Shown in pieces: positions 11,975-54,137 of a stretch of DNA of 61,244 nucleotides. The stretch's first letter is position 1; the number at the start of each line of letters is the position of its first letter. This DNA is from Candidatus Poribacteria bacterium. Lineage in GTDB: Bacteria; Poribacteria; DTPJ01; WJIO01. A model generated the notes under the pieces. That model was not told the origin of the DNA, made no database searches, and saw only the letters and a program-made list of their open reading frames with translations. Location: the NCBI GenBank assembly GCA_014730235.1, contig WJIO01000421.1, positions 1 through 61,244 of the forward strand. The letters run 5' to 3'. Position numbers and translations under genes: made by a program.

Positions 11975-12000
11975 GTTTTATAAATTTACCCCTATAAAAA

Positions 12001-12035
12001 CAATGACAGTTCTGGTTAAACCAGAACTGTCATTG
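12001..12035. repeat. Perfect 17-bp palindrome with CAATGAC...GTCATTG ends (possible terminator or REP)
   Basis: CAATGACAGTTCTGGTT-A-AACCAGAACTGTCATTG. Confidence 0.6.
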
Positions 12036-12049
12036 TTAATCAAATTTAG

Positions 12050-12538: not shown

Positions 12539-12562
12539 AATTTTCCTCCTGATTTTTATTTC

Positions 12563-13159: not shown

Positions 13160-13170
13160 AAGATTTTTTT

Positions 13171-13287
13171 GGTTCTTCCGGGTTCAGTGTGGTAATAATT
13201 GAAAATTCTCTTAGCTTGTCATTCCTGCTTTCGCAGGAAACAGCATAAAAAGTTTCTTATCTTTACCACACTAAACCCAGAAGAACC
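13171..13287. mobile_element. Intact ISL3-like MITE (117 bp)
   Basis: 25-bp terminal inverted repeats GGTTCTTCCGGGTTCAGTGTGGTAA (23 of 25 match), flanked by GATTTTTTT on both sides; internal GTCATTCCTGC remnant. Confidence 0.85.
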
Positions 13288-13339
13288 GATTTTTTTGCTA
13301 TAGGGCATATATGATATGCCCCATATAAATATTACTGTG

Positions 13340-13915: not shown

Positions 13916-13948
13916 TTTTTACCTCCGGAATTAGTGGTTTGTGTATGA

Positions 13949-15924: not shown

Positions 15925-15938
15925 AAGTTCACTCCTAT

Positions 15939-18886: not shown

Positions 18887-19681
18887 TTAATTCAGCATCT
18901 TGATCCTTGCCCATGCAATACCAAGCTTATCTTTTGGTGTAACAGCCAGCCCGTCGGCCTGGAAATTTTGCTGTACTTCTGCCTGAGTAAGGGCTTTTTC
19001 GTAGATGCGCACCTCGTCTATATATCCCTGTATAGTATCAGTGTTTTTGCCGTCTGCCCGATCTCCGATACCAAAGAATAAATTTCCACCTACAAAGTTA
19101 CTGGAAAGAGAGTAAGTTTTTACAGCTACACCGTTTTCGTAGTATTTCACAGTCTTACCATCCCATGTTCCTACCAGGTGCAGCCAATCCTCCAGGGGTA
19201 TATCCTCCTGTATCATATCATCTTCAGCCGCACAGCTTTCCCCATCTGCTCTAAGGAAAAAGCCATGCTGATCATCGTCATCATCGTAATAAAGACTGGC
19301 CACGTTTAGATTACCTGCGTCGGTATCATCCAGGGATAAAATACGGTTCCAACTATCGTCAAGGGCATTTATAAAGACCCAGCATTCCAGGGTTATCTGC
19401 TGATAATCTCTGTTAATTACCTCAGAATTAATCAGGATACAATCGGCATCACCATCGAGAAGCAGACATTCACCTATTTTACCTGGGGCCAGCTCCGGAT
19501 CACCTTTGATCTCTCCATGACTCTCGCCAAAAACATCCTGGACAATATTATCGGCTATAGTAGCTTCATCCATAGGCCAGTAAGCCAGCAAACCATTAGT
19601 GACAGCACCAGCCCTGACTAATTGTGGATAGAATAAGATTATTAAACATGATAGAGAAAAACTTACTAAAAAACCTTTCAT
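18887..19681 (-). CDS. Secreted LamG domain protein with C-terminal W.RIK tail
   Basis: Signal-like MKGFLVSF... (start taken downstream of the ORF-track start), WLHLVGTWDG...YYENG, QGYIDEVRIY; ends AVTPKDKLGIAWARIKMLN. Confidence 0.8.
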   Translation of the reverse strand: MKGFLVSFSLSCLIILFYPQLVRAGAVTNGLLAYWPMDEATIADNIVQDVFGESHGEIKGDPELAPGKIGECLLLDGDADCILINSEVINRDYQQITLECWVFINALDDSWNRILSLDDTDAGNLNVASLYYDDDDDQHGFFLRADGESCAAEDDMIQEDIPLEDWLHLVGTWDGKTVKYYENGVAVKTYSLSSNFVGGNLFFGIGDRADGKNTDTIQGYIDEVRIYEKALTQAEVQQNFQADGLAVTPKDKLGIAWARIKMLN

Positions 19682-19713
19682 AATTTCAATTTCCTCCTTT
19701 GTAAATTCATGAT

Positions 19714-20790
19714 TTAACCAATTCCATAACCGCATTTTCTCATACATTCTATCACTTTTTCAACAGGCACAGCATGTGCTGTATTACCATCGCGTCCGAC
19801 CATCTTATTGGCCCGAAACAGGGAATTTATTATAGCCTCTTCAATGGATTCGATACATGCTCTGAAAAAACTGGTGATGTTTTTCCATACCAGGGACATA
19901 TCATGAGAAGCACCCTGGAATAGTGGAACGGTGGAAAAAGCCAGAGCAATGTCGCCGCTTCCGTGAGTGGCCATCCCACCGGTTCGGGCCAAGCCAAAGC
20001 TGGCCCTTCTGGCAATGCGTCTCAGACCTACAGGATTAAACGGTGCATCGGTGGCAATTACCATAATTATCGATCCCTTTGATTCTTTTTCAGACTTCTG
20101 CTGGATCATCCTTCCCACAGGTACTCCGTCAATACACAGATCCCCGGTACCTCCCATATTATTCAGGGCCAATGCCCCCAGGACGTAGGTCTCTCCGCCG
20201 CAGTCAACCAGCCTGGATGCCATACCGATACCGGATTTATAACCAAAACTGCGCATTCCTGTACCTGCGCCAATACATCCTTCACTCAGGTCTTTTGAGG
20301 CATTTTCCAAAGCGTTAAAGACATGTTCCCGGTCAACATGCATGCCCCATATATCGCTTAGATTGCTGTCGTTACACTCCATAACAACAGGATTGACGGA
20401 TAATATGCGATGGTCTATTTGCATCATCCATTCCACCAGATGTTGACTGACTTTTCCTACATTCAGGGTATTGGTAAGCAATACAGGTGTTTCTATCTCC
20501 CCCAGTTCATCAATTTGCATCAATCCTACAGATTTTCCAAAGCCGTTTATAACATCAACGGCAGCCGGGAGTTTATTTCTATGGGGTGACATATCCTTAT
20601 CCGGTATTATAGCTGTTACGCCGGTTCTCACAGGGCCTTTGCCCCTGACAAGTTCCCCTGCACCCCAGACTAATGTTGAATGTCCAATTTTTACATCGGC
20701 TACATCACATATAGTGTTGGTTTCCCCGATAGGCATTATGCCAATTTTTATCCCTAGTTCTCTGGCTCTTGGTCGTTCAGATGTTTGCAT
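19714..20790 (-). CDS. dmpA: P1/S58 family peptidase (DmpA-like L-aminopeptidase/D-esterase)
   Basis: N.I.DV..VKIGH.T, TGVTAI, NGFGKS.GL.Q..ELG..ETP.LLTNT, GSIIMVIATDAP, GSGDIALAFST. Confidence 0.85.
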   Translation of the reverse strand: MQTSERPRARELGIKIGIMPIGETNTICDVADVKIGHSTLVWGAGELVRGKGPVRTGVTAIIPDKDMSPHRNKLPAAVDVINGFGKSVGLMQIDELGEIETPVLLTNTLNVGKVSQHLVEWMMQIDHRILSVNPVVMECNDSNLSDIWGMHVDREHVFNALENASKDLSEGCIGAGTGMRSFGYKSGIGMASRLVDCGGETYVLGALALNNMGGTGDLCIDGVPVGRMIQQKSEKESKGSIIMVIATDAPFNPVGLRRIARRASFGLARTGGMATHGSGDIALAFSTVPLFQGASHDMSLVWKNITSFFRACIESIEEAIINSLFRANKMVGRDGNTAHAVPVEKVIECMRKCGYGIG

Positions 20791-28245: not shown

Positions 28246-29100
28246 TTACTGCTTTACATCACCCCATACCGTTGATAATTTACCAGCGGGTTCAACTGGT
28301 GCCAGAGTACCGAGATAACCCATAATATTTTCGTGGAGTTTAATCATAGCATCGGCAAATTCACAATCCTCCTCCACTGAACGGAAAACAGTAAATCGCC
28401 AACCGCTTATTATGATTGTTCCGTCACCAACTTCATATTCAACCAGGGGGCATACCTGACCAAACCAACCCTGGGGGTGGGGCTCCTGATAAGCCATTCC
28501 CAAAACCCTACCCTCTTGCGGCGGGCCGGCTGGATAAAAATCACACATGGCATCATGACCATAACAGTCTATATTGAAACCTTCTGCAGGATCTAACCCT
28601 AATTCATCAAAACCGGCAAAAACCGGATGTTCTTCCTCACCAGGAGCGGCTATTATACCCGATGGTGAATGGTCAACATTAGGAGCACAAAACCTTGGTT
28701 CCAGGCTTTCCAATTCCAGATCGAATACATAGTGAAAAGCTACCTGGGAAAGAAAAAGAGATCCACCGGATTCTACAAAATCCATAAAAGCGTTCATGGT
28801 TGCCTGCTCCAGAAACACAGGTGGTATGTCCTGCTGATTTGCCCTGTGCCACCATACTACCTGGAAATCCCCAAGTTCAACCGAATTCCCATTTTCATCC
28901 TCAAATTTACCCGATCCTGCTGGATGAATAAGAGTCGCGTTATAATTATCCACAGCCCAGTTATATTCAGCTTCATCCTCTGGTGGCACATCAGCCTCTG
29001 CTTCCAGAAAAGCCATGTTAATACCAGCGGCAAAGATAACCTGAGCAGAAATCAAACTAATAAAGCAAATAAGTACCGATATATAGAACTTATTCTTCAT
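28246..29100 (-). CDS. Secreted DUF4960-like protein with C-terminal TVWGDVK tail
   Basis: Signal peptide, L.DF.VVWWH and FV..GGSLFLS (glutamine amidotransferase-like fold); ends APVEPAGKLSTVWGDVKQ. Confidence 0.65.
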   Translation of the reverse strand: MKNKFYISVLICFISLISAQVIFAAGINMAFLEAEADVPPEDEAEYNWAVDNYNATLIHPAGSGKFEDENGNSVELGDFQVVWWHRANQQDIPPVFLEQATMNAFMDFVESGGSLFLSQVAFHYVFDLELESLEPRFCAPNVDHSPSGIIAAPGEEEHPVFAGFDELGLDPAEGFNIDCYGHDAMCDFYPAGPPQEGRVLGMAYQEPHPQGWFGQVCPLVEYEVGDGTIIISGWRFTVFRSVEEDCEFADAMIKLHENIMGYLGTLAPVEPAGKLSTVWGDVKQ

Positions 29101-30732: not shown

Positions 30733-32655
30733 TCAGGGAAAAGGTTGATAAATAGTGGTATCCAGAGCCACGCCGATTATGCTCCATATGCTTCCTATTG
30801 TCAGATCGCCCAGGGCAAGGCCGAGAAACAGCGGAACTGAACGGCGATATAGTTTAAGGCCTCCGTATTTCAGGATGATCCACTTGGCCATGTAGCTTGC
30901 AAAGAAGCAACTCCAGAGGTTATACATGCCCCAGTCGCCAGCCATAGCATATCCCAGGGGATGAAAGGGAAACCATAGGAATCTGGTTCGCAGGAATGTG
31001 AGCGCGGATGCTATTAAAAATCCCACACCCATAAAGATAGTTCCTATACTGTTGGGTTCGGTAGGATAATATATCCAGTTTTGCAGTCGGGAGTATGTTT
31101 CATTACCAAGACCAAGGGTCCAGGGGCCGAAATATCCCGATGAAGCACCGGTTTTATAATATAGATGCAGGTAAATCCAGAAACAGGCTATCACCGTTAC
31201 AAAAGCCGATAGCACTATACCCAGGGACAACCTTCGGGAGCGATATCCCGAAAGATTAGTCATCTTCATACCCTCAAGCATGTGGGGCATAGGATGACTT
31301 CTGTAAGTCCGGTTAAAGAAGCTATACATGGCAAAGGCTGTCAGGGAATTCTTACCGATGCGCTGACTGCCAAGAGCTGTTATCATCATCTGTCGGGGGT
31401 TAAGACCACTCAGGCTGTGTACGCTGAGCCCCAACTCGGCCCGCATTCGGGTAATGAAGGTGGCGATTAGATAATACATTAAAAAAAAGATTGGGATCAT
31501 ATATATGGACATACCGATCCTGGATGAAAATACAGAGAGAATAATAAGACCAACCACAAAACCAATAACAGCTGTTCTATAGGATAAAGGTTCATCAGAA
31601 TCTTCATGAGGTACAGGTTTAAAAACCCTTATGATAACATTTTTCAAATGTTCCCGACCCATCCACAGACTGAAGATAATCACACTTACCACAGCACCAA
31701 AGGCCTGCTCGCTTTGATACGGGAAATTGGGTAGACTCCTGAAACCCACCAGTCCACCCACCATTAACTCCGCCTTGTAAAACCAGTAAAACGACCAGCA
31801 CGACAGCAGTAAATCTATAGGTATAAGAAAGCTCATACCGATAACAAAGGGATAGAAAGAAAGTCTGACACCTCCCATAAGACTCCAGGGCCTTTCAGTA
31901 AGGCCTGCCAGATTTCTGCGCTTTACTGGAATTTCCGGTATAGTTGGAACAAAATATTTCAGGCCGTTCACGACGCTTATAAAAGCCGCTATGCCAAATC
32001 CTATCCACATTAGTTTATTTCTGAAGAATTTGCTCTTTTCGGTAGTCATTTCCAGGGGAAGCCGTATCATGGGATATGTAAGCTTTTCCCGTTCTGTCCA
32101 TTGCTTTCGCAGGATACTGCAAAGACATAACATGGTAAAAACCAGAAGTGTAATAAAACCAAGCCATATTAAAACTGGTAAAACCCAGGGCTTTATATTT
32201 CGCCAGAAATAAAGGCTTGACGAACCTTTGTAGTAACCCTCCAGAGCCGTTTCGTCATTAACTACCAGATACCGAGGTAAGTTGTCCCAGATCAATTCCT
32301 TCCACTCATTTTCTGGCGTGGCAAAGTAAAAAGCATGTCCCATATTGGAAACCAGTATCTGAAGCATATCTATAGAGGCCAAACCTGAAGATACACTGAG
32401 CATTACATAAATAGTAATAAGCTCCCCCTGGTTCAATACTGTCCTCTTAAAGACTTTCTCAGAAAACAGGTTAAACAGGAAGGCAAACAGGAAGATAAAA
32501 ACTACATTGAAAAACGGAATTATCAGCGTGGGATGGGTATACCTGACGACTTCCAACTGGGCAATCCAATAGACGTTGATCGGTATAAGCAATATGCTGA
32601 GTATTATGGCTCTGAAACCTATGGTTCGTTGATTCGATGTAGAATTGCCTTTCAT
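30733..32655 (-). CDS. DUF6785/DUF6784-type polytopic membrane protein (putative OPT-like transporter)
   Basis: ELITIYVM, YFATPENEW, LRKQWTEREKLTYP, RMRAELG, HPMPH.LEG.K, PFHPLGY, FLGL.LGD motifs; many TM helices. Confidence 0.75.
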   Translation of the reverse strand: MKGNSTSNQRTIGFRAIILSILLIPINVYWIAQLEVVRYTHPTLIIPFFNVVFIFLFAFLFNLFSEKVFKRTVLNQGELITIYVMLSVSSGLASIDMLQILVSNMGHAFYFATPENEWKELIWDNLPRYLVVNDETALEGYYKGSSSLYFWRNIKPWVLPVLIWLGFITLLVFTMLCLCSILRKQWTEREKLTYPMIRLPLEMTTEKSKFFRNKLMWIGFGIAAFISVVNGLKYFVPTIPEIPVKRRNLAGLTERPWSLMGGVRLSFYPFVIGMSFLIPIDLLLSCWSFYWFYKAELMVGGLVGFRSLPNFPYQSEQAFGAVVSVIIFSLWMGREHLKNVIIRVFKPVPHEDSDEPLSYRTAVIGFVVGLIILSVFSSRIGMSIYMIPIFFLMYYLIATFITRMRAELGLSVHSLSGLNPRQMMITALGSQRIGKNSLTAFAMYSFFNRTYRSHPMPHMLEGMKMTNLSGYRSRRLSLGIVLSAFVTVIACFWIYLHLYYKTGASSGYFGPWTLGLGNETYSRLQNWIYYPTEPNSIGTIFMGVGFLIASALTFLRTRFLWFPFHPLGYAMAGDWGMYNLWSCFFASYMAKWIILKYGGLKLYRRSVPLFLGLALGDLTIGSIWSIIGVALDTTIYQPFP

Positions 32656-32763: not shown

Positions 32764-34683
32764 TCAATTCCAACCAGCCCCGGATGAGGGCATGTAAACC
32801 TTAAACACAAGGCTGACTATACTCCATATACTCCTCAATGTAAAATCTCCCAGAACAAGACCCAGGAAGAAGAATGTGGCCTTACGGTGGGTTTTTATGC
32901 CGCCATATTTCAGGATTATGGACTTAATCATCCAGCTTACCATTACCGGAAACCAGAAATACACCATTCCACCCCACGCGCCGCCAGAAAGGACGTAGCC
33001 CGATGGATACAGGGGCCACCACAAAAAGCGTGTGCGCATAATATGCAAAAAGGTCACAAACAAAAATCCCCCGCCCATGAACTGCAAGGCTTTTACATCC
33101 GTTCCCTGGGGATACTGAAGCCAGGCCTGGAGAGGGTTATAGACTTCCCATCCAGCATTACCTATCCAGCCCTGAAGCCTTCCCAGCGTGCCGTAATGAT
33201 ATGTAAAATGAAGGTATGACCAGAAACTTGCTATGGCCCCAAATCCAACGGCCAGAAGTATAGCCTGAACCAGTCTTTTGTTGTTCATTCCTGTTCGTTC
33301 CGCTATCTTAAAGGCTTCTATCTGGCATGGCATAGGATGGGCCCGGTTGCACCTGTTGAAGGGGTAGATGAAAGACATGATAGTAAGATTGTTTCCAAGA
33401 AGTCGCCTTGAACCGAACATCTGAACCATAATACCCCTGGGGTTGATACCAACAACCTCGTGATAAGGAGGACCTAATTCAGCCCTTACCCGGGCTATAG
33501 CTATGGCGAAGAGTATATATATAGCAAAGAAAACTAGTATGGCCCATATAGACATACCAGCGAAACGACAGAACAGCACAAGAACCAGAAGACACACAAC
33601 AAGCATGATTGCGGCTGTCCTGTAACGCATAGGCTCTTTTGAATCGTCCATCTTCTCTAAACCTAACAGGTGCTTGCCAAAGGCCACAAGATGCCGACGG
33701 GCAAGCCATAAGGCAATTAGTGCAACACCTATCCAGGCTCCTGATGCCCTTTCGTTAAGATACAGTTGATTCCATCCTACAGCAGATGCAAACACCCTCT
33801 CAAACCTTGTAAGCCAGAAGAAGAACCAGCACGAAAAGGACAGGTTCAGTGGCATAAAGTACGTAAGCCCCACAATACCAAGATTGAAAAACAGTGTGAC
33901 ATAACCGATGGCGTTCCAGGGTTTTTCGGTGACGAACTGGTCTATCCTGTATGTATAGGGAATAGAAGGCACGGCAGGAACAAGGTCGTGTATGCCATTG
34001 AAAAACCTTATAGATCCAGCCACGGCCAGACCTATCCACATGAGCTTTGTCTTATAAAACTTTCGATCTGCTGCCATAGCCAGGGGAAGCTGGATTATGG
34101 GATAGCTGAGTTTTTCGTTTTCCGTCCATTGTTTCCGCAGGATGGAACTGATGCACAGCAGGGAAAAGTAAAGAAAGAAAATAAAAGCCGACCACACCAT
34201 AACCGGCACAAGCCATGCTTTCATGTTTTCCATTACATGAAAACCCGATTCGCCGGTAAAATAACCTGACAATACATCCATATCCGAAACTGTCATCCAT
34301 GATGGTATATACTGCCAGAATAAGCTCTGCCATTCGTTTTCCGGTGTTGCAAACCAGTAGGGCTGTGTTAATGTTGCCAGCAGCGGCGTCATGGTTGTGT
34401 GGCCCGATATAGTAGATACCATAGTAACCATGACATATATGACCAGAAGTTCAGCCGGCGACAGGGCCAGCTTGCTGGAAATCCTGCGGAGGAAAAATCC
34501 TACCGTGATCAAAAAAGTGAGGGTAAAAATAGCGTTGGAAAAGGGATTTACCAGCGTAAACATGCAGTACCACTGCTCGCTGGATATTCCCACCCAATAT
34601 GCATTTATAGGCACCAGTATAAGACCCAGGATGATGGCCCTTAAAGTTATATCATCCCGACCCGATTTTTCGCTGTAGTTCAT
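32764..34683 (-). CDS. DUF6785/DUF6784-type membrane protein, paralog 2
   Basis: Same motif series (WFATPENEWQ, QWTENEKLSYP, RVRAELG, HPMP.Q.EAFK, FFLGLVLGD). Confidence 0.75.
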   Translation of the reverse strand: MNYSEKSGRDDITLRAIILGLILVPINAYWVGISSEQWYCMFTLVNPFSNAIFTLTFLITVGFFLRRISSKLALSPAELLVIYVMVTMVSTISGHTTMTPLLATLTQPYWFATPENEWQSLFWQYIPSWMTVSDMDVLSGYFTGESGFHVMENMKAWLVPVMVWSAFIFFLYFSLLCISSILRKQWTENEKLSYPIIQLPLAMAADRKFYKTKLMWIGLAVAGSIRFFNGIHDLVPAVPSIPYTYRIDQFVTEKPWNAIGYVTLFFNLGIVGLTYFMPLNLSFSCWFFFWLTRFERVFASAVGWNQLYLNERASGAWIGVALIALWLARRHLVAFGKHLLGLEKMDDSKEPMRYRTAAIMLVVCLLVLVLFCRFAGMSIWAILVFFAIYILFAIAIARVRAELGPPYHEVVGINPRGIMVQMFGSRRLLGNNLTIMSFIYPFNRCNRAHPMPCQIEAFKIAERTGMNNKRLVQAILLAVGFGAIASFWSYLHFTYHYGTLGRLQGWIGNAGWEVYNPLQAWLQYPQGTDVKALQFMGGGFLFVTFLHIMRTRFLWWPLYPSGYVLSGGAWGGMVYFWFPVMVSWMIKSIILKYGGIKTHRKATFFFLGLVLGDFTLRSIWSIVSLVFKVYMPSSGAGWN

Positions 34684-39216: not shown

Positions 39217-40269
39217 ATGAGAAAGCTTTTTGTTCTCATAATTTCTATTTTGATGGCTTTAACAATACAGGCCTTTGCGTGTTTTAATCCCACCGATATT
39301 TTTGCTACAGAAGTAGTATTAAACAAACCGGGAATTAATTACGACCTGACATTAATAAAGGCGGCTGATAACGTTACATCGAAAGATGGAACTTATTCTT
39401 ACCGTTCCCATTATGACAGTCGGGTTGCTGTAATTCTGGAAGAGATCAATGAGGGGGAACCGGTAAATTTAAAGGGATTAAGCGTTAGAGTGCAGATACC
39501 CACCCGGGAAACCAGAAGAGTTAATATTGTAGCCAGTGTTGAATTTGAATTGGAAGGTTTAATTGTGGATAACCTGGATAAAGATTTGCTAACTTCCCTG
39601 GGCTACAGTATTGATGTTGATGATATGGAAATTTTCAGACCAGAGGAACCGGGTGATATTGAAGATCCTATATCTCCAATTAATAACGCCGTTTTTCTGG
39701 AAAAAGATAATATTTTAATATCTATGATGGATATTGTAGTTTCTGATAGAAATAAAGTTATAGCGAGGTTCGAAGTCATAGATCAGCGGGAAATTGGCGA
39801 ACAACAGGTCAATGAATTTGGGCATATACTTAAATCCTTTGGTGTTGATGAATCGGTTATAGGTCAGATGTCTGAGAGTATAGAAAAATATGAAAATCAG
39901 GATCTAGCCGAAGCCGTTGATTTGGATAAAGAGAGTTTTGATTTCAAATCAGCCCTTAGAACCGAATTGGATTGGCTTAACATCAATGAAATCATAAAGG
40001 GTATTGAAAGAGAAGATATTACAGCTATTGCTGATATTGCAGAAGCGGGTTATGCTGGATGGAACTCAAGAATAGTTTACGACAGCGGTAAATGGATACC
40101 CTATGTCCAGACAGATAATCCCACTGTATTCCGGTCGCAGGACTGCGGGGGTTTTGACCCTGAAATTCTACCCTGGAATAATGAATCAATTATATTGCCA
40201 GCACCTAGCAGCGTCAGTCCAGAAGCTAAAGCTGTTATGACATGGAGCAGTATTAAGAACGGTATGTAA
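39217..40269 (+). CDS. Secreted hypothetical protein with C-terminal TWSSIK tail
   Basis: GGAGG RBS, signal peptide ending AFA-C, acidic body, ends SSVSPEAKAVMTWSSIKNGM. Confidence 0.75.
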   Translation: MRKLFVLIISILMALTIQAFACFNPTDIFATEVVLNKPGINYDLTLIKAADNVTSKDGTYSYRSHYDSRVAVILEEINEGEPVNLKGLSVRVQIPTRETRRVNIVASVEFELEGLIVDNLDKDLLTSLGYSIDVDDMEIFRPEEPGDIEDPISPINNAVFLEKDNILISMMDIVVSDRNKVIARFEVIDQREIGEQQVNEFGHILKSFGVDESVIGQMSESIEKYENQDLAEAVDLDKESFDFKSALRTELDWLNINEIIKGIEREDITAIADIAEAGYAGWNSRIVYDSGKWIPYVQTDNPTVFRSQDCGGFDPEILPWNNESIILPAPSSVSPEAKAVMTWSSIKNGM

Positions 40270-44647: not shown

Positions 44648-46567
44648 ATGGAGCAAAGCAAATTTAATTTAGGTCAGGATAAAAGATCCGTCGGTGTTAC
44701 CTGGAGAGCATTGCTGATAGGGATAATCCTTATTCCCATAAACGTATACTGGATTATGGATTCAGGTGGACAGGGCTATCCCACAACTGTATCCCTCTAT
44801 TTCAACGTTATCTTTTGTGTATTTTTATTAATAATTCTGAACCATATTACTAGTCGTATCTTTCCCAAATTAAGCTTCAGTCAGGGAGAATTACTGGCAG
44901 TTTACGTTATGCTTTCAGTATCCTCATCCATAGCTGGACATGATATGATGAGAGTCTTATCATCAATGCCAGCCCATCCGTTCTGGTATGCAACTCCCGA
45001 AAACGAATGGCAGGAGCTTTTTCATAGATATATACCCACATGGCTTTCTGTTTCAGATAAGAATATGCTGAACGACTACTTTAAGGGTGATTCCAGTTTT
45101 TACAGTATGCAAAACCTTAAATTCTGGCTTAAACCAGTGTTGTGGTGGAGTTCCTTTGTCTTTTGCCTACTTTTCGTTATGCTTTGTGTAAATACTATAG
45201 TCCGTCGTCAATGGACAGAACAGGAAAAGCTCAGTTATCCAATTATACAGTTGCCTTTGGAAATGACAACCAGCGGTGGTATAAAGGGTTTGATGCTGAA
45301 TAAGCTTATGTGGATCGGTTTTGGTTTGGCGGCTGTTGTAGATATAATAAATGGTCTTAATTTTCTGTATCCCTCCGTTCCCAGCATTGGCGGCAAATTA
45401 TACGACCTGCGACCTTTTTTTACTACAAAACCCTGGGATGCTATCGGTTGGACTCCTGTTGCTGTGTTTCCCTTTGCCATTGGCATTGCATTTTTCATAC
45501 CCCTTGATCTTTCCTTTTCATGCTGGTTCTTCTATTTATTCTGGAAGGTTCAGCGTATTCTCGGTTCAATTCTGGGACTCAGAAGTCTGCCGCGCTTTCC
45601 ATATATTGAAGAGCAGGCTTTTGGTGCATATATGGGATTATTTGTCATAGCCATATGGGCTACCAGAAAACATCTGATGGAAGTCATTAAGAAATTCTCC
45701 GGAATAAAATCCAGGGTTGATGATACCAAAGAACCGCTTCCCTACAGGTGGGCAGTTCTTGGTTTAATAGTCGCTTTTGCTTATCTGGTTGGATTTTGCT
45801 ATGTGGCCGGCATGTCCATATGGGTAGCAGTTTTATTTTTTGTAATATATTACGCAATTTCAACGGCAATATGCCGCATGAGGGCGGAATTAGGATCACC
45901 TGTCCACGATCTGCATTTCATTGGCCCTGATCAAACACTTCCCAAAATATTTGGCACTCGCCATCTGGGCGCAGCCAATCTTACCATGTTTGCATATCTT
46001 TATTTCTTCAACAGAGCATACAGAGGACACCCTATGCCGCATCAATTGGAGGGATTCAAGCTGGCCGAAAGGACAGGCATGAATTCCCGGCGGCTTCTTA
46101 TTGCAATGGTTATATCTGTTCCACTGGCGGCTCTGGCTTCGTTCTGGGCGCACCTGGATATATCCTATCGGGTTGGCGCGCCGGCCTGGTTTGCATGGGA
46201 ACCTTTTAACCGTCTCCAGAGCTTTTTATCCGCACCACAACCGCCGGATTATGGGGCAATTGTGGCATCCAACGTAGGATTTATTACCACGATTTTGTTG
46301 ATGTTTATGCGGGTTAAATTTTTCTGGTGGCCCTTTCATCCGGCCGGTTACGCTGTATCTAGTAGCTGGTCAATGAATGTGTTCTGGTTTTCCATAATGT
46401 TAAGCTTCTTTGCTAAGTATATCATAATGAAATCAGGTGGGATCAAGACACATAGAAAAGCTATTCCCTTTTTTCTTGGGCTTATACTGGGTGAATTTAT
46501 TGTGGGAAGCGTTTGGAGCATAATTGGTGTATCCATGCACAGACCCATGTATAGATTTCTATATTAA
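44648..46567 (+). CDS. DUF6785/DUF6784-type membrane protein, paralog 3
   Basis: Same motif series (WYATPENEWQ, QWTEQEKLSYP, RMRAELG, HPMPHQLEGFK, PFHPAGY). Confidence 0.75.
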   Translation: MEQSKFNLGQDKRSVGVTWRALLIGIILIPINVYWIMDSGGQGYPTTVSLYFNVIFCVFLLIILNHITSRIFPKLSFSQGELLAVYVMLSVSSSIAGHDMMRVLSSMPAHPFWYATPENEWQELFHRYIPTWLSVSDKNMLNDYFKGDSSFYSMQNLKFWLKPVLWWSSFVFCLLFVMLCVNTIVRRQWTEQEKLSYPIIQLPLEMTTSGGIKGLMLNKLMWIGFGLAAVVDIINGLNFLYPSVPSIGGKLYDLRPFFTTKPWDAIGWTPVAVFPFAIGIAFFIPLDLSFSCWFFYLFWKVQRILGSILGLRSLPRFPYIEEQAFGAYMGLFVIAIWATRKHLMEVIKKFSGIKSRVDDTKEPLPYRWAVLGLIVAFAYLVGFCYVAGMSIWVAVLFFVIYYAISTAICRMRAELGSPVHDLHFIGPDQTLPKIFGTRHLGAANLTMFAYLYFFNRAYRGHPMPHQLEGFKLAERTGMNSRRLLIAMVISVPLAALASFWAHLDISYRVGAPAWFAWEPFNRLQSFLSAPQPPDYGAIVASNVGFITTILLMFMRVKFFWWPFHPAGYAVSSSWSMNVFWFSIMLSFFAKYIIMKSGGIKTHRKAIPFFLGLILGEFIVGSVWSIIGVSMHRPMYRFLY

Positions 46568-46660
46568 TCATGCCTGAAAATATGTAAACCCTTTTTTTCA
46601 TTATGCGTTTTAAGAAGTCGTAAGCAAAGATAATTCCCTAACTTGATCAGGAGTTGTATA

Positions 46661-49600
46661 TTGCATAGCATATCCAAAATCCGGTGCGACAAGAAATTAA
46701 AATTATTTACCCCACCGTTATTTTTGTTGTATATAATCATTTATGGATTAACGGTTTTTTGTCCATCCTTTGCCAAAGAAGCTAAAACCGAATTATCAGC
46801 AAAAAAACATGATAAATTTAATATACATCTTTTGCAAAAAGACGAAACTCTATCCCATGTAGCTCTAAGATATTACAAGGATATTTCAATGGTAGGATTG
46901 CTGGCAAGGTATAATGATATAAACGATGTGCGGCGTATACCCGAAGGCAAAGAAATTAAAGTTCCCTATGAAATTTCATATACAATCAAACCCAATGATT
47001 CATTATCGGAGATAGCCCAGAAACTTCTGGGAAGCTGGCAGAAATACAGCATAATTGCTGAATATAATAAGCTGGAAGATCCCGGATTTGTGATCGCTGG
47101 TAGAGTTTTGAGGATACCGCTGCTTAAGCCTGATACTGAACCCCCAGAACCAGAAGCACCCCCTGCTGAAGTTGTGGAAGAAGACAAGCCAGAAGAACCT
47201 GAAAGAAAGAAAGTAGAAAAAGAATATCCAGTCGTTACCGAATCAGAAAAAGAAGAGAAAACCAAAGAGATAATAGAACCTACAAAAGAAACAGAAGAAG
47301 ATGTTTCCACAGAACCGGATGTAGATATAGAAAAAGAAACTAAACCGGAAACGGTGGTTGAGCCGCAGGAACCGGTTGAGGTAGAAACTGAAACCAAAGT
47401 TATTCCGGAAATATCCGAAGAACCCCCATCCCCTGCCTCAACGGAAGAATTAAAACAGGAAAAACCCAAAGACCATACCGCACCTATAGGCCCTATGCCT
47501 CAATCCAAATTCAGACTCGTCAGGGTAAAGCCAGATGATAAGGAAGAAGAAATCATACAGGAAGAATTTGGTGTGGAGCAGGAATGGCCCCTGGCCTCCC
47601 CCTGGGCCAGAAAAAAACTACAACCATCAGAAGAGGAAATAACCGAACCGGACAGGCTGTCGGCTGTATTGGATGCACTGAAAACCTGGGATCGTCCTAT
47701 TGAGGAATTAGAGGATAGCAAAAAAGCCCGATTTGACGAAAAGGGCATAAACCTGCCTATGGATTCACTGCTTCAGGTAACAGGATATAAATCCATCACA
47801 ATCCAGTATAATAAAACCCACTATTTTGGAAAATCCGATATAAACCGATACAGCGGATATTATTCCGGTGGCTATGGTTCAGGCTTTTATGATTATGATT
47901 ACGGTTATGATTCCTATGGTTACGGTAGTAGCTACAATAGCTACAGCAGTGGTTACAGCAGTTATGGAAGCGGCTACAGTTCCTCCAGGTATGGTTATGG
48001 CTATGGTCAACGAGAAGGCCCAAATATTGAACAGGAATTTGACATTCATATTCATGGACGAGTTGGTAAGCATACTCATGTGGATGTTGATTACAATGAT
48101 ACCGGCAGATCTCAATATGGCGGAATGGGTCAGAAGGAGCAGAAAATTTCTGTGTGGTATGAGGGCGATCCGGAGGATATAATCCAAAGAGCTGCATTCG
48201 GTGACATTCGCCTTGAATTACCCAACAGTCGCTTTCTTAATATGGGCAGAACCCTCTTTGGCGCACAAATGGTGGCAAAATTGGGTGATCTTAAATTAAC
48301 TGCCTTTGGAACCAGAACCAAAGGTATCAAAGGAACCTGGACATCCAAAGGTCAGTCCAGAAGGGCCGGAGGTGGAACCGGTACCAGGATCATGGATATT
48401 AATTATATTAAAGAAAGATATTATGCCATAAATGTGGATGAAGACGGTTTTATTAATGATTCGTATTTACCAATAGAAACAGGCAGCGAGCAGATTTATA
48501 TAGACGATGGTATCGGTACAAATAACGATTCAGGTATATCAACAGCCCAGGGATATTTCGACTATCAATACCCCGGTGATGATTACAGCATTGATTACTC
48601 TACCGGACAGATAGAATTTTTAAAGAATATATCCACAGGTTTTAAAATTGTGGTAGCTTACAGATATCGGGGTGGTGATGGTGGTTCTGTGGGTAATCCG
48701 GATTCTGTATTTGTGGATGATGATGATGATGGTATAACGGATGGATTAGACGATCCTGATGATCCTGTGGGTTATGTAGTTATAAAAGATTCAGCGGCTC
48801 ATGGTTCGGAACTGCGGAATGTATACAGTCTTGGAAACAGGAATATCGGCAGACGCAACTTTGAATTAAGCATCTGGCGTGAGGGTGCAACGGATTCTTT
48901 TGAAACAGGTGATGGTAAGGTAGCATATATACGTATATTCGGCTTGGATTCGGACAACGACGGTCTGGTTGATCCTGAACTTATAGACTTTGAAAGGGGA
49001 ATACTTACTTTCCCAAATCCCAAACCCTTTATCATTGATGATCCTGCAAGTCCTTATTATCAATACAGGGATGAATTAAATAACGAGGCAATATACTCAG
49101 AAAACCCCAACTATTCCGATCAGAAATACATTATCCAGGCGGATTATTCATACCAGACACCGAGTTTTTATCTTGGAAGATTAAATATAATACCTGAAAG
49201 TGAAGAAGTAAGGGTAAACGGTCAAAGATTGAATAGAAATACAGATTATATGATGATCTATGAGGTGGGCTCAGTAGAGATATTCAGGGAACTGGATGAA
49301 TATGACGAAATTACAATTGATTATGAATATATGCCTTTTGGCGGTCAATACCAGCAGACAATAGCAGGTATATGGGCTGAATATTCGTGGAAACCGGGCA
49401 AGAAAAAGGAAGAAAAGAAAAAAACTCACACAGATATGTATAGGGAAGACGGGGCCAGTCCCTTCTCCCAGGATACAGACAGCAGTGATTCCGACTACAG
49501 TCGTTATGGAAGCTCAAGCTCAAGTTTCGGTAACTATGGGTCTTTTGGCGGCAGCTATAATAGCTATGGAAGCAGTTATGGAAGTAATTACGGTAGTTAT

Positions 49601-52600
49601 GGTGGTTATGATAGCTTTAGTTCATATAGAGGCAGAAGAGGAAGTTTTGGATCAAGCCGGAGTTATGGTTCATCCCGCAGCAGTTTTTATACACCCCGAA
49701 CTGGTGAAGGCTTGAACCTCTCTATGGGATATGTATATAATACAGGAGAAAGAACTTCCGCAATTCCCGACGTTAATTCCGCTCCAAGTCGTCTCCAGGC
49801 TTTGGTATTTGGTGGAAACTGGGGTGATAAATTCAATATGGCCAGGGTTTTTGGACTTCTTCCCTTTGTATCAATAAAAGGCGAAGTGCCTTTTACGGTT
49901 TACCTGGATGGTGAAGCTGCCTATAGCCGTAATAATCCCAACAGCGTTGGCTATGCCATGATTGACAGTATGGAAGGTGCAAAAGAGAGCGCAAAAATGC
50001 CCACCTATAAGTTCTCCTGGAAAACTGCAAGCGTGCCAATGGATACGGAATCGGATAACGATATTTCAATTGATAACAGGGCGATTTTTCATATAGAAGA
50101 ATATGACGAAGATGCCAGCTACGGCAACTATATGAAAAACCGGGAAACCTCCGCTATTGAAATTAATCCCTTATCCAGAGCAACCCAGCAGCATCTTGTT
50201 ATGGAGATCGGGTATGATTTAAACGATGCTGCATCATGGGGAGCTTTAGCCTATCCTGTTTCTAACACCGGTGCAGATTTTAGCGAATATGAATTCCTTG
50301 AAATATGGATGAAGGTTGACGGTGATGAAAATGTAAATCTGCATCTGGATTTTGGTGTTATAAGTGAAGATACGGATGATGATTTTCGTTTGGATAGCGA
50401 AGACCTGCCCAGGGATATGCTCGACAGCAACGGTGATCATAAAATAGATATACTCGATCTGGATAAAGAAGACCTGCCGGAAGAGCATAAATATAAAGGG
50501 AACGGAAGCCTTGACCTGCGTGAAGATAACGGATGGGTCTACAACGATTTTAGTGGAAATGTAATTGACACTATTGGCAGGGAAAACTCGGTTCTGGATT
50601 CTGAAGACCTGGATGGAGACGTGGTATTGGATACAAACAATTCATATTTCGGTTTTACCATACCATTAAATAATATACCCAATGACTGGATCCGCAAAAA
50701 AACCAGCAAGACAGGATGGATATTCCTGAGTATACCTCTGGAAGAGGCTCTTCCAAAAGGACGTTCACCAAGCTGGGCAGTTATTAAGCATATGCGATTA
50801 TGGTTAGAGAAAAATATTCCCGGTTCTATAAATGGTAAATTCCAATGGTATTCAATAACTGTCGCTGGTAACAGATGGGAGAAAGGCCTTGTTGTTGAAA
50901 ATGAAACAGGCAAGCTTTCAGAAGATCTCACAAATGAAATTCTGGTTGGTACAAAAAACAACCACGAATTTGAAGATTACCTGGAAGAATACAGAAAGAT
51001 AGAGGATAACGAAGATTTTGATGTCCTGCATCCATATGTGGAAAGCGCATTTGGTCTGGAAAGCGACCAGAAAGAGCAATCATTAACTCTGAATTATGAT
51101 TTACAACCGGACACAACTGGTTACACCATGCGGGAATTATCCGGGGTTCGTCGTGGCGAAGGTCAGGATTTTTCAAAACATAGAGAGATGCGTATATGGT
51201 TGCATGGTGATGGTAGCGGTTTACCTTTCTTGATCAGGATGGGAAGCAATACCGATGATTTCGGAGCAGGAAGTCCTATAACAACAAAAGATGATGACAA
51301 TAACGATCCATATAACAATTATAACTATACTTATTCGTCATATTCATCAAGGTATGGAGCAAAAGGTTATTATGAGTATATCCTTCCCCTTGATTTTAAA
51401 GGATGGAAACTAATAAAAATATCATTTGCGGATAAAGATGATGATGGACATCCGGATGAATTAACGCCTATAAACGATCCTGCCATTAACAATATCCACG
51501 AAATACTTGTGGGTATTAAAAACGAATATCAGTATCCTGTAACAGGTGAAATATGGGTTAATGAAATACATTTAACAGATCCATTTGTCAAATCCGGCTG
51601 GGCAAGACGTTTTAATTTATCCGCAGATTTAGCCAATATTTTTGATATCAGAGCTGGTTATGCAAAGCAAGACAAGAATTTTGAAAATTCCGCAGGTCAA
51701 ACAGGCAGATCAAGCATGCGTTCTTATGGCTACAGCACCAGTAGTTATGATTATAATGTTGACACCCAATTTAAACTAATCTCATGGCTGCCTATGAGTT
51801 TTGGTATAAGTCACCGGGAATCGGAAAGCAGCAGTCTTTACGGAATAATCAGTTCCTATCAAAGCGGTCTAACAAAAACCGATAACAAGACTTTCAGCAT
51901 TAGCCTTGATAAAAGCCCTATCCCTCGGTTGTCTTTTTCATACGACAAGCAGAGACAGTGGAATGAAGTCAGAGGGGTGGAATTGAGTGACCTTTATTCA
52001 TCGGATGTGGGATATTCTCTTGGCAGTGTTTTGACAATTAACCTTGATTATTCCCATGAAGTATTGACAACGGAACAGGATTCATCGGAAGATGACACCA
52101 CTCCAACAAGTTCTTATTACTATTACGGCAGAGATACCGATACAATAGTTGACCGAGGCGGCATATCCCTTAGAATATCCCCTATAAAAAGCTTTAGCCT
52201 TGATCCATCTTATGAAGTCAGAAGGGAAATGGAGCGGGAGAAAGACGAAGATGACATAGAAGGTGGATTTCTTATTTCATCCAGAGACCAAAGAATATCC
52301 CTTAGACCGACCCTGAGAAAATTCTGGGGGGTTAAACCATCAATAAACGGCAGATATGGTTTCAGTGAAGACTGGTTTGGCGGCGAAAAGGACGTATCCC
52401 TCAACACAGATCTCGGTTTTGGGTTAAACTTTACCTTTAAGGACTGGTTTAAACCCAAGAAAGGGAAAGATGAACGAGGACGGGATAGGTTAACGGAATT
52501 GGGTAAAGATATTGACCTGTTGACTGAAGAAGACCTTCGCTCCCTGAGTGAGGAAGATATACAGGAACTCCTGGATGAAAAAACTCAGCAGGAACGGGGT

Positions 52601-53536
52601 AACTGGATCGAAAAGGAAAAGGATGAAATAAAGGAAAAGCTGCGTCAGCGAAAACTCGAGGAAGAAATGGATATAGAGCCTGATGCTGAAGGTGGTAATT
52701 TTGCCTTCCGGGCCTTAAAAAGAAGTGTATCAACTTTTTCCATTAATACTGATTTAAGATACAGTATCAATGACTACCTTCGCCGTTTAGATCCCACAAT
52801 GGGATTTTCGGATATAATGAAGCTGGAAGATGAATCCGAATTCCGAACAAGGTCTACCAAAACCAGAAGGTTTACCATCAGAGCAAATATGGATCCCATG
52901 ACGTGGGCTTCTCTGGGAACCAATATGTCACTAACCAACAGGTTTACTAAATCATCAGGAACAGCATCCGATTCTGATTCATCAACCGTTGGCGGCGATA
53001 TTAAAATATTTAGCTCTCAGACATCCTTTATGCTTAAATACAATATGACCACTCAGGATTCCAGCAACCAGAGCGGTAAAATATCCGACAGCATATCCCA
53101 TAATCCATCAGTTACTGTGCGAAAAAGCTGGTCTTCAGGAATCGGCTCATCTCTGGGATTTAGAATTACCTTCCGAGATTATGAACGTGGTGGAATAGAG
53201 ACAAGGTCAAGAATTTATGCACCAAACTTTAATATAGATTACGATCTGCATGTAAAGGGTGATGTTGATCTACCATTTGTACGCAAAATAAGCCTCGATC
53301 ATAATCTGGATATGAGCAATACAGTTTCAGTAATGGTACGTCGGGAAAAGCTGGGAATAAACCGGGATGAGAAATCAGAGCAGTATGGAACTTCTCTTGA
53401 TGTTAGTTATAATCTACGACAAACACTCAGAGCAAGTATGAGATTCTCTTTGGACTATAACCATGATAGGGTGGAAAAAGATGCAGATTATATATCTGTT
53501 TCAGGGTCCCTCATGCTAAGGGGTGAGTTTAGATAA
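46661..53536 (+). CDS. Giant SprA-like outer-membrane protein (T9SS translocon-like) with two N-terminal LysM domains
   Basis: AGGAG then TTG start at 46661; signal-like N-terminus; two LysM repeats; SprA-like segments (R.LFGAQ, NIIPESEEV.VNG..L.RN.DY, DFSEYEFLEIWM, ISEDTDDD..LDSED, EIWVNEIHL..P..GWA); amphipathic beta-strand C-terminus. Confidence 0.75.
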   Translation: MHSISKIRCDKKLKLFTPPLFLLYIIIYGLTVFCPSFAKEAKTELSAKKHDKFNIHLLQKDETLSHVALRYYKDISMVGLLARYNDINDVRRIPEGKEIKVPYEISYTIKPNDSLSEIAQKLLGSWQKYSIIAEYNKLEDPGFVIAGRVLRIPLLKPDTEPPEPEAPPAEVVEEDKPEEPERKKVEKEYPVVTESEKEEKTKEIIEPTKETEEDVSTEPDVDIEKETKPETVVEPQEPVEVETETKVIPEISEEPPSPASTEELKQEKPKDHTAPIGPMPQSKFRLVRVKPDDKEEEIIQEEFGVEQEWPLASPWARKKLQPSEEEITEPDRLSAVLDALKTWDRPIEELEDSKKARFDEKGINLPMDSLLQVTGYKSITIQYNKTHYFGKSDINRYSGYYSGGYGSGFYDYDYGYDSYGYGSSYNSYSSGYSSYGSGYSSSRYGYGYGQREGPNIEQEFDIHIHGRVGKHTHVDVDYNDTGRSQYGGMGQKEQKISVWYEGDPEDIIQRAAFGDIRLELPNSRFLNMGRTLFGAQMVAKLGDLKLTAFGTRTKGIKGTWTSKGQSRRAGGGTGTRIMDINYIKERYYAINVDEDGFINDSYLPIETGSEQIYIDDGIGTNNDSGISTAQGYFDYQYPGDDYSIDYSTGQIEFLKNISTGFKIVVAYRYRGGDGGSVGNPDSVFVDDDDDGITDGLDDPDDPVGYVVIKDSAAHGSELRNVYSLGNRNIGRRNFELSIWREGATDSFETGDGKVAYIRIFGLDSDNDGLVDPELIDFERGILTFPNPKPFIIDDPASPYYQYRDELNNEAIYSENPNYSDQKYIIQADYSYQTPSFYLGRLNIIPESEEVRVNGQRLNRNTDYMMIYEVGSVEIFRELDEYDEITIDYEYMPFGGQYQQTIAGIWAEYSWKPGKKKEEKKKTHTDMYREDGASPFSQDTDSSDSDYSRYGSSSSSFGNYGSFGGSYNSYGSSYGSNYGSYGGYDSFSSYRGRRGSFGSSRSYGSSRSSFYTPRTGEGLNLSMGYVYNTGERTSAIPDVNSAPSRLQALVFGGNWGDKFNMARVFGLLPFVSIKGEVPFTVYLDGEAAYSRNNPNSVGYAMIDSMEGAKESAKMPTYKFSWKTASVPMDTESDNDISIDNRAIFHIEEYDEDASYGNYMKNRETSAIEINPLSRATQQHLVMEIGYDLNDAASWGALAYPVSNTGADFSEYEFLEIWMKVDGDENVNLHLDFGVISEDTDDDFRLDSEDLPRDMLDSNGDHKIDILDLDKEDLPEEHKYKGNGSLDLREDNGWVYNDFSGNVIDTIGRENSVLDSEDLDGDVVLDTNNSYFGFTIPLNNIPNDWIRKKTSKTGWIFLSIPLEEALPKGRSPSWAVIKHMRLWLEKNIPGSINGKFQWYSITVAGNRWEKGLVVENETGKLSEDLTNEILVGTKNNHEFEDYLEEYRKIEDNEDFDVLHPYVESAFGLESDQKEQSLTLNYDLQPDTTGYTMRELSGVRRGEGQDFSKHREMRIWLHGDGSGLPFLIRMGSNTDDFGAGSPITTKDDDNNDPYNNYNYTYSSYSSRYGAKGYYEYILPLDFKGWKLIKISFADKDDDGHPDELTPINDPAINNIHEILVGIKNEYQYPVTGEIWVNEIHLTDPFVKSGWARRFNLSADLANIFDIRAGYAKQDKNFENSAGQTGRSSMRSYGYSTSSYDYNVDTQFKLISWLPMSFGISHRESESSSLYGIISSYQSGLTKTDNKTFSISLDKSPIPRLSFSYDKQRQWNEVRGVELSDLYSSDVGYSLGSVLTINLDYSHEVLTTEQDSSEDDTTPTSSYYYYGRDTDTIVDRGGISLRISPIKSFSLDPSYEVRREMEREKDEDDIEGGFLISSRDQRISLRPTLRKFWGVKPSINGRYGFSEDWFGGEKDVSLNTDLGFGLNFTFKDWFKPKKGKDERGRDRLTELGKDIDLLTEEDLRSLSEEDIQELLDEKTQQERGNWIEKEKDEIKEKLRQRKLEEEMDIEPDAEGGNFAFRALKRSVSTFSINTDLRYSINDYLRRLDPTMGFSDIMKLEDESEFRTRSTKTRRFTIRANMDPMTWASLGTNMSLTNRFTKSSGTASDSDSSTVGGDIKIFSSQTSFMLKYNMTTQDSSNQSGKISDSISHNPSVTVRKSWSSGIGSSLGFRITFRDYERGGIETRSRIYAPNFNIDYDLHVKGDVDLPFVRKISLDHNLDMSNTVSVMVRREKLGINRDEKSEQYGTSLDVSYNLRQTLRASMRFSLDYNHDRVEKDADYISVSGSLMLRGEFR

Positions 53537-53537: not shown

Positions 53538-54137
53538 TTACCTTATTGCACTCCAGACTGTAAAAGTATATTTTGATCTTTCAATTAAAAAAGCTGGAGT
53601 ATTTGGCCTCCCGGGGGTAATAACAGAAAAGACGACAAAATCCATCTGATTGTTATCGGTATCAAGCCCGTCAGGTCGTCTTCCGATGCTGTATCCTGAA
53701 ATATCCAGAGTCGGTTCACCTTCCCCTGCAAAATTATTATCGACAAAATCGCCATATCCCACAGCGTCGGCAATTTCATTTCCCATATACAGCAATATAT
53801 TGTCAGGCCCGTTCTGAAAATTCACTTTAGGATTTACTACATCCGCATTTTCCACAGAATTGTCCTGAGCTACAACAAAGTAACCATCATGGGGTATTTC
53901 ATATCCTGCCAGTTCTATTCGGTTATATTCCTTTCCGCTGCCTCCATTAATCCCCAGGAGATAATATTCATCCAGGTTCATTCCCGGTTGTCCGGTCAAT
54001 TCAACAAAACAACCGGTATCAACTCCCGGAGAATCATAGAGGACTTCATTTATTACCAACCGGGCGAATACATAGTCAGAATAAAATAGGAAAAATAAAA
54101 TAAAAACAATGATTAAATTTTTTCGCCCCGCACACAT
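53538..54137 (-). CDS. Secreted lamin-tail-domain protein with TVWSAIR tail
   Basis: LVINEVLYDSPGVD..FVEL, FQNGPDN..L, SIGR.PDG.DTD.N..DF, TPG.PN. Confidence 0.75.
   Translation of the reverse strand: MCAGRKNLIIVFILFFLFYSDYVFARLVINEVLYDSPGVDTGCFVELTGQPGMNLDEYYLLGINGGSGKEYNRIELAGYEIPHDGYFVVAQDNSVENADVVNPKVNFQNGPDNILLYMGNEIADAVGYGDFVDNNFAGEGEPTLDISGYSIGRRPDGLDTDNNQMDFVVFSVITPGRPNTPAFLIERSKYTFTVWSAIR

Follow-up and report, generated by a model that had tools for sequence, protein, structure and literature searches.

Aromatic, glycine- and serine-rich tracts predicted on opposite faces of the SprA-like translocon of Poribacteria, and their possible role as a soft gate

How is a very wide outer-membrane pore closed, and how is export through it powered, in the many phyla that carry the type IX translocon SprA and in which neither Plug nor the GldM motor is detectable? 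This question is raised by a 61,244-nucleotide stretch of Candidatus Poribacteria bacterium DNA (assembly GCA_014730235.1, contig WJIO01000421.1, positions 1 to 61,244 of the forward strand; hereafter the window), in which the gene of an SprA/Sov-like translocon carries long tracts rich in Tyr or Phe, Gly and Ser. The SprA pore is about 7 nm wide and is closed in turn by Plug, at its periplasmic end, and by PorV, at its lateral opening (PMC7463736, PMC12398890, PMC10202324). The tracts described here are a conserved and proteome-unique candidate solution to this problem in Poribacteria. The gene and its tracts, with faces of the barrel as predicted, are:

46643..53536, + strand: gene of the SprA/Sov-like type IX secretion translocon, a single open reading frame (ORF) of 2297 amino acids (aa)
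47843..48019, + strand: tract 1, the Tyr/Gly/Ser loop L1, with its core at 47849-48007 (aa 403-455)
48092..48142, + strand: loop L2, between strands 3 and 4 on the outer face, short in the query
49391..49708, + strand: tract 2, the insert T4, a Lys-rich stem (about 49391-49474) and then a Ser/Gly/Tyr/Phe tract with an Arg cluster (49475-49708)
51299..51373, + strand: third, short tract of Asn, Tyr and Ser, lineage-restricted, within a loop that belongs to the second cap insert
51698..51760, + strand: echo in outer loop L7 (strands 13-14), of near fixed length
52094..52150, + strand: short Ser/Tyr/Gly echo in outer loop L10 (strands 19-20), variable in length among the orthologues shown

Two of these tracts stand apart from the rest of the protein. 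The peak fraction of Ser, Tyr and Gly per 25 residues reaches 0.96 in tract 1 and 0.88 in tract 2, beyond anything seen when the protein was shuffled 500 times (maximum 0.52 on average and 0.72 at most), and both lie in frame (the core of tract 2, 49490-49690, is aa 950-1016 of the 2297-aa ORF). Together they hold 13/18 of the [G/S]Y[G/S] triplets of the protein and are the two longest G/S/Y/F tracts of the genome (80 and 71 aa; runner-up 38 aa), as ranked over 8136 stop-to-stop frames of at least 100 aa. A preliminary description of this DNA had named five such tracts; the two long ones are present as it described them, but the values of the third tract (0.60) and of the 51720 echo (0.56) fall inside the range of the shuffles, and the echo near 52115 falls below the 0.52 threshold, so that these three show no excess. 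The third tract is S/Y/G-rich solely in the order of the query and in one further genome, and the 51720 echo, spanning 79-83 aa in orthologues, is a loop of nearly constant length with no insert.

A DNA repeat or assembly artefact was considered as the source of the tracts and rejected, given that little DNA periodicity was present and that the same sites are occupied in 37/37 full-length orthologues. Tandem Repeats Finder reported just 4-5 short units in the tract DNA, with scores of at most 30-38, and the tracts use a mixture of synonymous codons. Separate small genes over the tracts were also considered: short frames do overlap tract 1, but it is the long frame that is conserved and constrained.

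The protein that hosts the tracts is, in Poribacteria, the orthologue of SprA, the type IX translocon. It matches PF14349 (SprA_N) with 28.3 bits, over the cut-off of 27, and TIGR04189 with 182.3 bits (E 9e-54), under the equivalog cut-off of 200, and is thus a divergent SprA-like orthologue outside that equivalog. Structure models were made with AlphaFold2 as two halves (aa 355-1118 and 1105-2297) from 38-row alignments, and SprA structures were the top four Foldseek matches of both (E-values of 2e-23 to 2e-14 and 4e-30 to 2e-22; next matches 1e-3 and 3e-7). Only SprA reached E < 1e-13 with either half-model, which, with the profile matches, bears out the SprA-like identity that had been read from the sequence. 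Superposition on SprA by VIA gave Z 11.7-12.5, tied with the AlgE porin, and a root-mean-square deviation of 21-30 Å over 391-474 residues, which is high because the half-barrel model is distorted. A sequence search of solved structures returned no SprA and just a weak LysM match; the fold search did recover SprA. An Atlas search with the stretch of strands 1-4 returned SprA_N clusters at 0.93-0.94, slightly under the recognition mark, and serves as a lead only. SprA orthologues were found in 61/61 Poribacteria genomes, with a single copy in that of the query.

The likeness to SprA of Flavobacterium johnsoniae (PDB 6H3I, 6H3J, 8GL6, 8GL8) and to Sov of Porphyromonas gingivalis comprises the fold of both halves, 36 strands, two big cap inserts, a long insert between strands 24 and 25 and the single copy, together with PorV, type A C-terminal domain (CTD) proteins and C25 peptidases in the Poribacteria genome. 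Unlike SprA and Sov, the host scores under the TIGR04189 cut-off, has a LysM N-terminus in the order of the query, and carries aromatic/Gly/Ser inserts of 60-125 aa at L1 and T4, where the Bacteroidota proteins have about 13 and 2 residues; in addition, Plug, GldM and GldN are unmatched in the Poribacteria genomes searched.

Where do the tracts lie on the barrel? The two half-models contain 11 + 25 = 36 barrel strands, four bulged strands each being taken as one, and 15/18 of the periplasmic connections in the strand table of the models are at most 7 residues long. The larger inserts of the barrel, besides the tracts, are:

48350..49357, + strand: first folded cap insert, after strand 7, from the model and strand table
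49928..51601, + strand: second folded cap insert, following strand 11 and containing a CBM11-like sandwich and loops rich in Asp
52436..52738, + strand: charged helical insert T12, between strands 24 and 25 on the predicted periplasmic face, the second control region of the selection comparison

The two folded inserts (336 aa after strand 7 and 558 aa after strand 11) cap the outer end in the models, and the sandwich of the second is identified by CBM11 fold matches, with PF03425 under cut-off. Strands 1 and 2 are joined by tract 1 (L1), strands 8 and 9 by tract 2 (T4). Both had been expected to lack structure and are so predicted, with a predicted local distance difference test score (pLDDT) of 25-36, low pLDDT being used as a stand-in for disorder; the third tract has pLDDT < 50 at model residues 437-469. 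In a barrel of the SprA type both termini are periplasmic, and faces were assigned on that basis by strand parity. Because both termini are periplasmic, tract 1 is predicted to be an outer loop and tract 2 a periplasmic turn, which would place them on opposite sides of the membrane. The N-terminus of SprA has been located with periplasmic SkpA (PMC10994853). Both tracts are attached to barrel strands, so that a location off the pore, which the preliminary description had allowed for, was not found. Three Bacteroidota SprA proteins have a loop of about 13 aa and a turn of 2 aa at these sites, and 29 aligned distant homologues have the same short loop and turn, the turn being up to a few residues longer.

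The first model strand (model residues 18-20) aligns to SprA residues 132-134, and the PorV site has been placed near a dish tied to the SprA N-terminus (PMC10994853), which by analogy hints at a lateral opening near strand 1. A complex prediction in which aa 365-919 were paired with one PorV-like protein, out of the 11 in the genome, returned a score of 0.00 and no call either way.

Orthologous genes were taken from 39/60 related genomes (37 whole, one C-terminally cut and one on two contigs). Both inserts occur in 37/37 whole orthologues and, where covered, in the partial ones, and in all eight families sampled. L1 measures 59-85 aa in 38/38 proteins, with 12-25 aromatics, and is composed of Gly 0.40, Tyr 0.17, Ser 0.17, Phe 0.05, Asn 0.016 and Gln 0.002; it includes one Lys in 2773 residues and zero Trp, His or Cys. 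The T4 insert measures 80-125 aa in 38/38 proteins (Gly 0.26, Ser 0.14, Phe 0.09, Arg 0.09, Tyr 0.06, Asn 0.041, Gln 0.033). It is Tyr-rich in the order of the query and in two small families and Phe/Arg-rich in the others, one genome (G003) having the weakest form, and most families show 4-8 FG pairs. [G/S]Y[G/S] triplets number 4-15 per L1 and 0-16 per T4. Loop L2, which the preliminary description had not listed, is a G/Y span of 24-42 aa in 33/38 proteins. Orthologues thus keep the composition of the tracts and not their sequence, as had been anticipated. Short motifs in or beside the tracts are fixed: HYFG in 38/38 proteins, DLG in 34/38, GGR[SR] in 32/38 and [YF]F[NDS]P in 35/38.

In a wider set of 261 database homologues, divided into close and distant, two or more tracts were present in 80/80 close homologues of at least 1900 aa, and the 4 tract-less close ones are fragments of less than 180 aa. 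Among distant homologues 3/160 gave a tract match; one of these is in fact the C-terminal part of a close homologue, and the other two are 25-residue matches in C-terminal strands. Anchor-to-anchor spans, rows lacking an anchor being dropped, were disjoint between the two groups both for L1 (close 90-121 aa, n=85; distant 36-55, n=157) and for T4 (close 115-207 aa, n=87; distant 47-58, n=154). The longest frames of 80 Zixibacteria- or Ignavibacteriales-labelled loci (57 of at least 1800 aa) contained no tract, and neither did those of 71 loci from the Krumholzibacteriota/Latescibacterota group and Bacteroidota (61 of at least 1800 aa), in searches seeded with two narrow alignments. The tracts, described earlier as inserted, are therefore absent at these sites from all distant homologues compared, and the absence from close orthologues that would have spoken against them was not observed. 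In a tree of 186 barrel cores (6/192 dropped for gaps), 25/25 sampled tract-bearing proteins form one clade with support 1.0; the tracts would therefore have a single origin, in the ancestor of the phylum.

The ratio of nonsynonymous to synonymous substitution rates (dN/dS), estimated over 16 disjoint close pairs, was 0.08 in L1, 0.18 in the aromatic part of T4 and 0.06-0.08 in the barrel core, as compared with 0.23 for T12 and 0.36 for the N-terminal linker (47120..47632), which served as disordered control region. Repeat alignment depresses dN; a neutral simulation was hence run with the same aligner and gave 0.71-0.82. Judged from these sequence comparisons, the tracts appear clearly to be under purifying selection. 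Tract length differed in 11/16 close pairs, repeat-unit indels were frequent, and the commonest changes were Gly-Ser and, in L1, also Phe-Tyr. The few equal-length pairs were additionally compared without gaps, giving nonsynonymous over synonymous proportions (pN/pS) of 0.099/0.356 = 0.28 for L1 and 0.076/0.339 = 0.22 for T4, as compared with 0.067/0.297 = 0.23 for T12 and 0.107/0.262 = 0.41 for the linker.

These data bear on one account of the tracts, that they are tolerated slippage expansions in permissive loops, with selection removing harmful residues and no function of their own. The frequent repeat-unit indels, the single origin and the shrinking of the margin over other linkers in the ungapped comparison all fit this account, as does the fact that SprA of other phyla functions without tracts. 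It is nevertheless quite unlikely: the 80/80 full-length close homologues carry tracts within a narrow length range, dN/dS lies far under the neutral simulation with little DNA periodicity remaining, and similar chemistry recurs at three separate positions in this protein, unmatched at such length elsewhere in the genome.

Which known disordered domains do the tracts resemble? The preliminary description had likened them to FUS-type prion-like domains. Prion-like domains are rich in Gln and Asn. The likeness to FUS, TAF15 and hnRNP proteins holds for the [G/S]Y[G/S] triplets, of which the two tracts contain 13, and for the Arg/Gly cluster of tract 2, but not for Gln/Asn enrichment, which the tracts almost lack, nor for most T4 inserts, which are Phe/Gly/Arg-rich with few triplets; the tracts are, moreover, anchored in membrane strands at either end, extracytoplasmic by prediction and without an RNA-binding domain (FUS triplets, PMC9534829). 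By analogy, their make-up appears closer to the YG domain of PEX13, in which aromatics, mostly Tyr and with at least 11 required, are separated by spacers of about four uncharged residues rich in Gly and Ser, and which varies in sequence, is offered from both membrane sides and admits receptor-bound folded cargo (PMC9795577). Shared features are Tyr/Phe with short Gly/Ser linkers, low charge, a composition kept while sequence varies and, on the models, attachment to a translocator of folded proteins from both membrane sides. L1 has 11 or more aromatics in 38/38 proteins, with a median linker of 3, a G+S fraction of 0.56 and a charged fraction of 0.09; the same make-up of at least 11 aromatics, short linkers and few charges is seen for T4 in 30/38, with more charge. 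No homology to PEX13 is claimed. PEX13 oligomerises and its mesh is itself the conduit, whereas the host presents 2-3 chains per pore on a rigid monomeric beta-barrel, with an Arg-rich tract 2, no known soluble receptor and gelation that is presumed. FG nucleoporins likewise offer disordered aromatic-glycine chains on a wide pore, and T4 has FG pairs, but the host chains are far shorter and fewer, have shorter spacers and mostly Tyr in L1, and belong to a 7-nm pore without transport receptors.

The best explanation of these observations, which we hold as a real possibility somewhat short of even, is that the tracts act as a soft gate, cohesive and disordered, for the 7-nm pore. The L1 connection at the outer face and the T4 connection at the periplasmic rim would have been lengthened in the ancestor of the phylum, and L2 too in most families. 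Evenly spaced Tyr and Phe would adhere weakly to each other, the chains would reach from the two mouths across or into the 7-nm lumen, and periplasmic proteins and large solutes would be hindered from passing while the pore is idle, until the chains part on engagement of a PorV-type shuttle with its cargo. The principle would resemble that of the PEX13 YG phase and the FG nucleoporins, independently reached and with just 2-3 chains per pore. Cohesion, occupancy of the lumen, gating and disorder in the assembled pore are what we infer from the sequences and models.

In favour of the soft gate are the SprA-type fold of both halves, the disjoint spans, the low dN/dS and the make-up of L1 set out above, the lack of a Plug match in 61/61 Poribacteria genomes, and the fact that the genome's two longest such tracts are both on its translocon. 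If both tracts lay wholly in a lumen cylinder 6-7 nm wide, with an assumed height of 5-7 nm, they would reach 92-146 mg/mL, and the aromatics, L2 included, 216-302 mM. YG domains gelled at 4-40 mg/mL (PMC9795577), and nuclear pores hold about 50 mM FG motifs (PMC8311347).

Several observations weigh against the soft gate. The models it leans on are of modest confidence (pLDDT 61 and 69; predicted template modelling score 0.42 and 0.49), L1 may point outwards, and the placement of chains in the lumen is presumptive. T4 has a charged fraction of 0.13, being Arg-rich, and at least 11 aromatics in just 30/38 proteins, with a minimum of 5, and the spacing of aromatics is evener than in shuffles (z < -1.64) in just 11/38 L1 and 9/38 T4. 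One chain supplies 2-3 tracts, and PEX13 acts as oligomers of more than eight chains (PMC9795577). FG and YG gels pass small molecules, and therefore a tight seal like that of Plug would not be expected. The margin of constraint over other floppy regions does not appear firm, because in the ungapped comparison L1 and T4 resemble T12 and lie just somewhat below the N-terminal linker. The acquisition of the tracts looks like one event, without replication. Finally, a Plug match was found in 0/27, 0/41 and 0/11 tract-less SprA-bearing genomes (the first two sets partly overlapping).

The last point concerns the components that the tracts might stand in for. Plug (PF17116) was matched in 0/61 Poribacteria genomes and in 4/5 Bacteroidota controls, divergent forms being possible. 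Because tract-less SprA lineages also have no Plug match, the lack of Plug needs no tracts, and a rule that tracts replace Plug is not supported. Outside Bacteroidota SprA homologues are widespread, and the genomes labelled Zixibacteria, Krumholzibacteriota or Latescibacterota (G061-G138) gave zero PF17116 matches. For GldM, the cut-off was passed in 0/61 Poribacteria genomes, with 2 weak matches under it and divergent forms possible, and in 5/5 Bacteroidota controls; GldN was matched in 0/1 genome without a positive control, the search having covered GldM and GldN and not GldL or GldK.

The genome of the query has 2 PorV (PF19572) matches over cut-off and 11 PorV-like barrels, some of them on its contigs C164, C243, C40, C112, C83 and C26 (genome G000), and 4-15 such barrels occur in each of 41/41 genomes. 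It also contains 33 matches to the type A CTD (PF18962), 28 of them over cut-off, four C25 peptidases and one noted OmpH/Skp match. In the window, tandem proteins at 7440-9356 and 9576-11468 end in type A CTDs (PF18962 over cut-off), have no other Pfam match and are likely cargo by their sequence.

These shuttles and undetected components raise the alternative that the tracts are fuzzy docking arms, T4 binding periplasmic partners or cargo and L1 and L2 binding PorV-type shuttles, in place of Bacteroidota parts that were not detected (the SprE/SkpA dish, GldLM-driven extraction). The 4-15 PorV-like matches per genome (11 in the query's), the GldM and GldN counts of 0/61 and 0/1, and the fixed HYFG, DLG, GGR[SR] and [YF]F[NDS]P motifs in or beside the tracts would suit such a role, and a disordered finger of SprE binds PorD (PMC10994853). 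The bulk of each tract has, however, no fixed sequence, 11/16 close pairs are unequal in length, and the partner is hypothetical, SprE lying outside the searches; we regard docking as doubtful.

To about the same degree improbable is a stronger form of the soft gate, in which the translocon has independently evolved a selective phase of the PEX13 or nucleoporin type. Tyr-rich L1 and L2 and Phe/Tyr/Arg-rich T4 would then meet in the lumen as an aromatic mesh that bars idle proteins and passes shuttle-bound cargo, in a system with no recognisable Plug or GldM motor. If this were true, it would be to our knowledge the first YG-type phase in the translocon of a prokaryote, and the principle would have arisen a third time, in addition to nuclear pores and peroxisomes. 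At 60-100 residues, the tracts are amenable to the gel assays published for PEX13, for which the organism need not be cultured. Full-text searches, which returned titles and abstract starts and left subscription journals mostly uncovered, found no literature on these tracts.

Cohesion could also act between molecules rather than within a pore, by clustering translocons in the membrane or by making L1 and L2 sticky toward a matrix or host; an adhesive surface loop had been proposed from the outset. Position allows a surface role for tract 1, on the predicted outer face with L2 and the short echoes, but not for tract 2, which is predicted to be periplasmic and out of reach of any surface. G/S-Y-G/S and FG repeats drive self-association (PMC9534829), and Poribacteria SprA is prominent in a sponge proteome, as a leading identification with Poribacteria as dominant symbionts (bioRxiv 10.64898/2026.10.20.760564); its expression is thus already published. 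Set against this, the tracts are in all eight families and so predate any one habitat, and their 60-85 residues are short next to the folded cap, which makes adhesion or clustering unlikely.

The tracts could, as a further alternative, provide a receptor phase for the phylum's many small secreted proteins with a short Trp-bearing tail in place of the folded CTD, much as PEX5 enters the YG phase through WxxxF/Y motifs. In the genome, 154 ORFs (median 263 aa) end in an AVxPxGKLxxTWGxIK-like tail, as compared with 3/4278 in the control, and an N-terminal hydrophobic stretch is present in 143/154 of them as compared with 587/1661 of the background. With the tail profile, 6/6 Poribacteria genomes gave 52-140 matches and 20 other genomes gave none. 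A shorter variant ([ST]WGxIKxx[YF]) ends proteins in 11/11 Krumholzibacteriota/Latescibacterota-group genomes (2-43 matches), being C-terminal in 11/11 loci checked, and the SprA loci of that group are without tracts; with the use of this pore by tail proteins a conjecture, we consider the receptor phase very unlikely. A necessary co-evolution of tracts and Trp tail is rejected, since tails occur in the tract-less group. Not covered by Pfam or NCBIfam models in the proteins scanned, the tail looks like a little-described or undescribed C-terminal sorting signal, on which no literature search was made. Six genes of the window carry it: 2475-3251, 3363-4133, 18887-19747, 28246-29100, 39217-40269 and 53538-54137.

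The N-terminal region of the translocon, ahead of the barrel, has the following features:

46643..46774, + strand: probable signal peptide, a hydrophobic stretch up to an Ala, read by eye from the sequence
46829..47119, + strand: two LysM repeats, PF01476 with E 9e-10 on aa 113-159 and the first repeat by eye
47120..47632, + strand: variable Glu/Pro/Lys-rich linker, identity 0.02-0.16 per block

The database places the start of the protein 6 codons further in (2291 aa), and the C-terminus is Phe-Arg. The LysM pair is probably periplasmic and a peptidoglycan anchor, and together with the linker (46829-47632) it suggests a direct anchoring of the translocon to peptidoglycan. Among 120 rows, PF01476 is listed for P0002-P0012 only; the LysM pair with its long Glu/Pro linker was seen only in the query's order, N-termini in other Poribacteria families measuring 104-211 residues.

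In two genomes the sprA match is broken across several frames (G018, Poribacteria, C21 509345-511848; G126, Bacteroidota, C1 1628869-1635775), through either sequencing error or a broken gene. A shared neighbour of sprA was seen at 1/40 related loci with short flanks, which gives no argument for an operon. Three DUF6785/DUF6784 membrane proteins lie in the window (30733-32655, 32764-34683 and 44648-46567), the last directly upstream of the translocon gene, a position that recurs in 1/40 of those loci. Elsewhere in the window, positions 11471-18500 encode a multihaem cytochrome with a thioredoxin-like domain, an SoxA/TsdA-type cytochrome, a ferric reductase, a cytochrome P460-like protein and two ferritin-like proteins.

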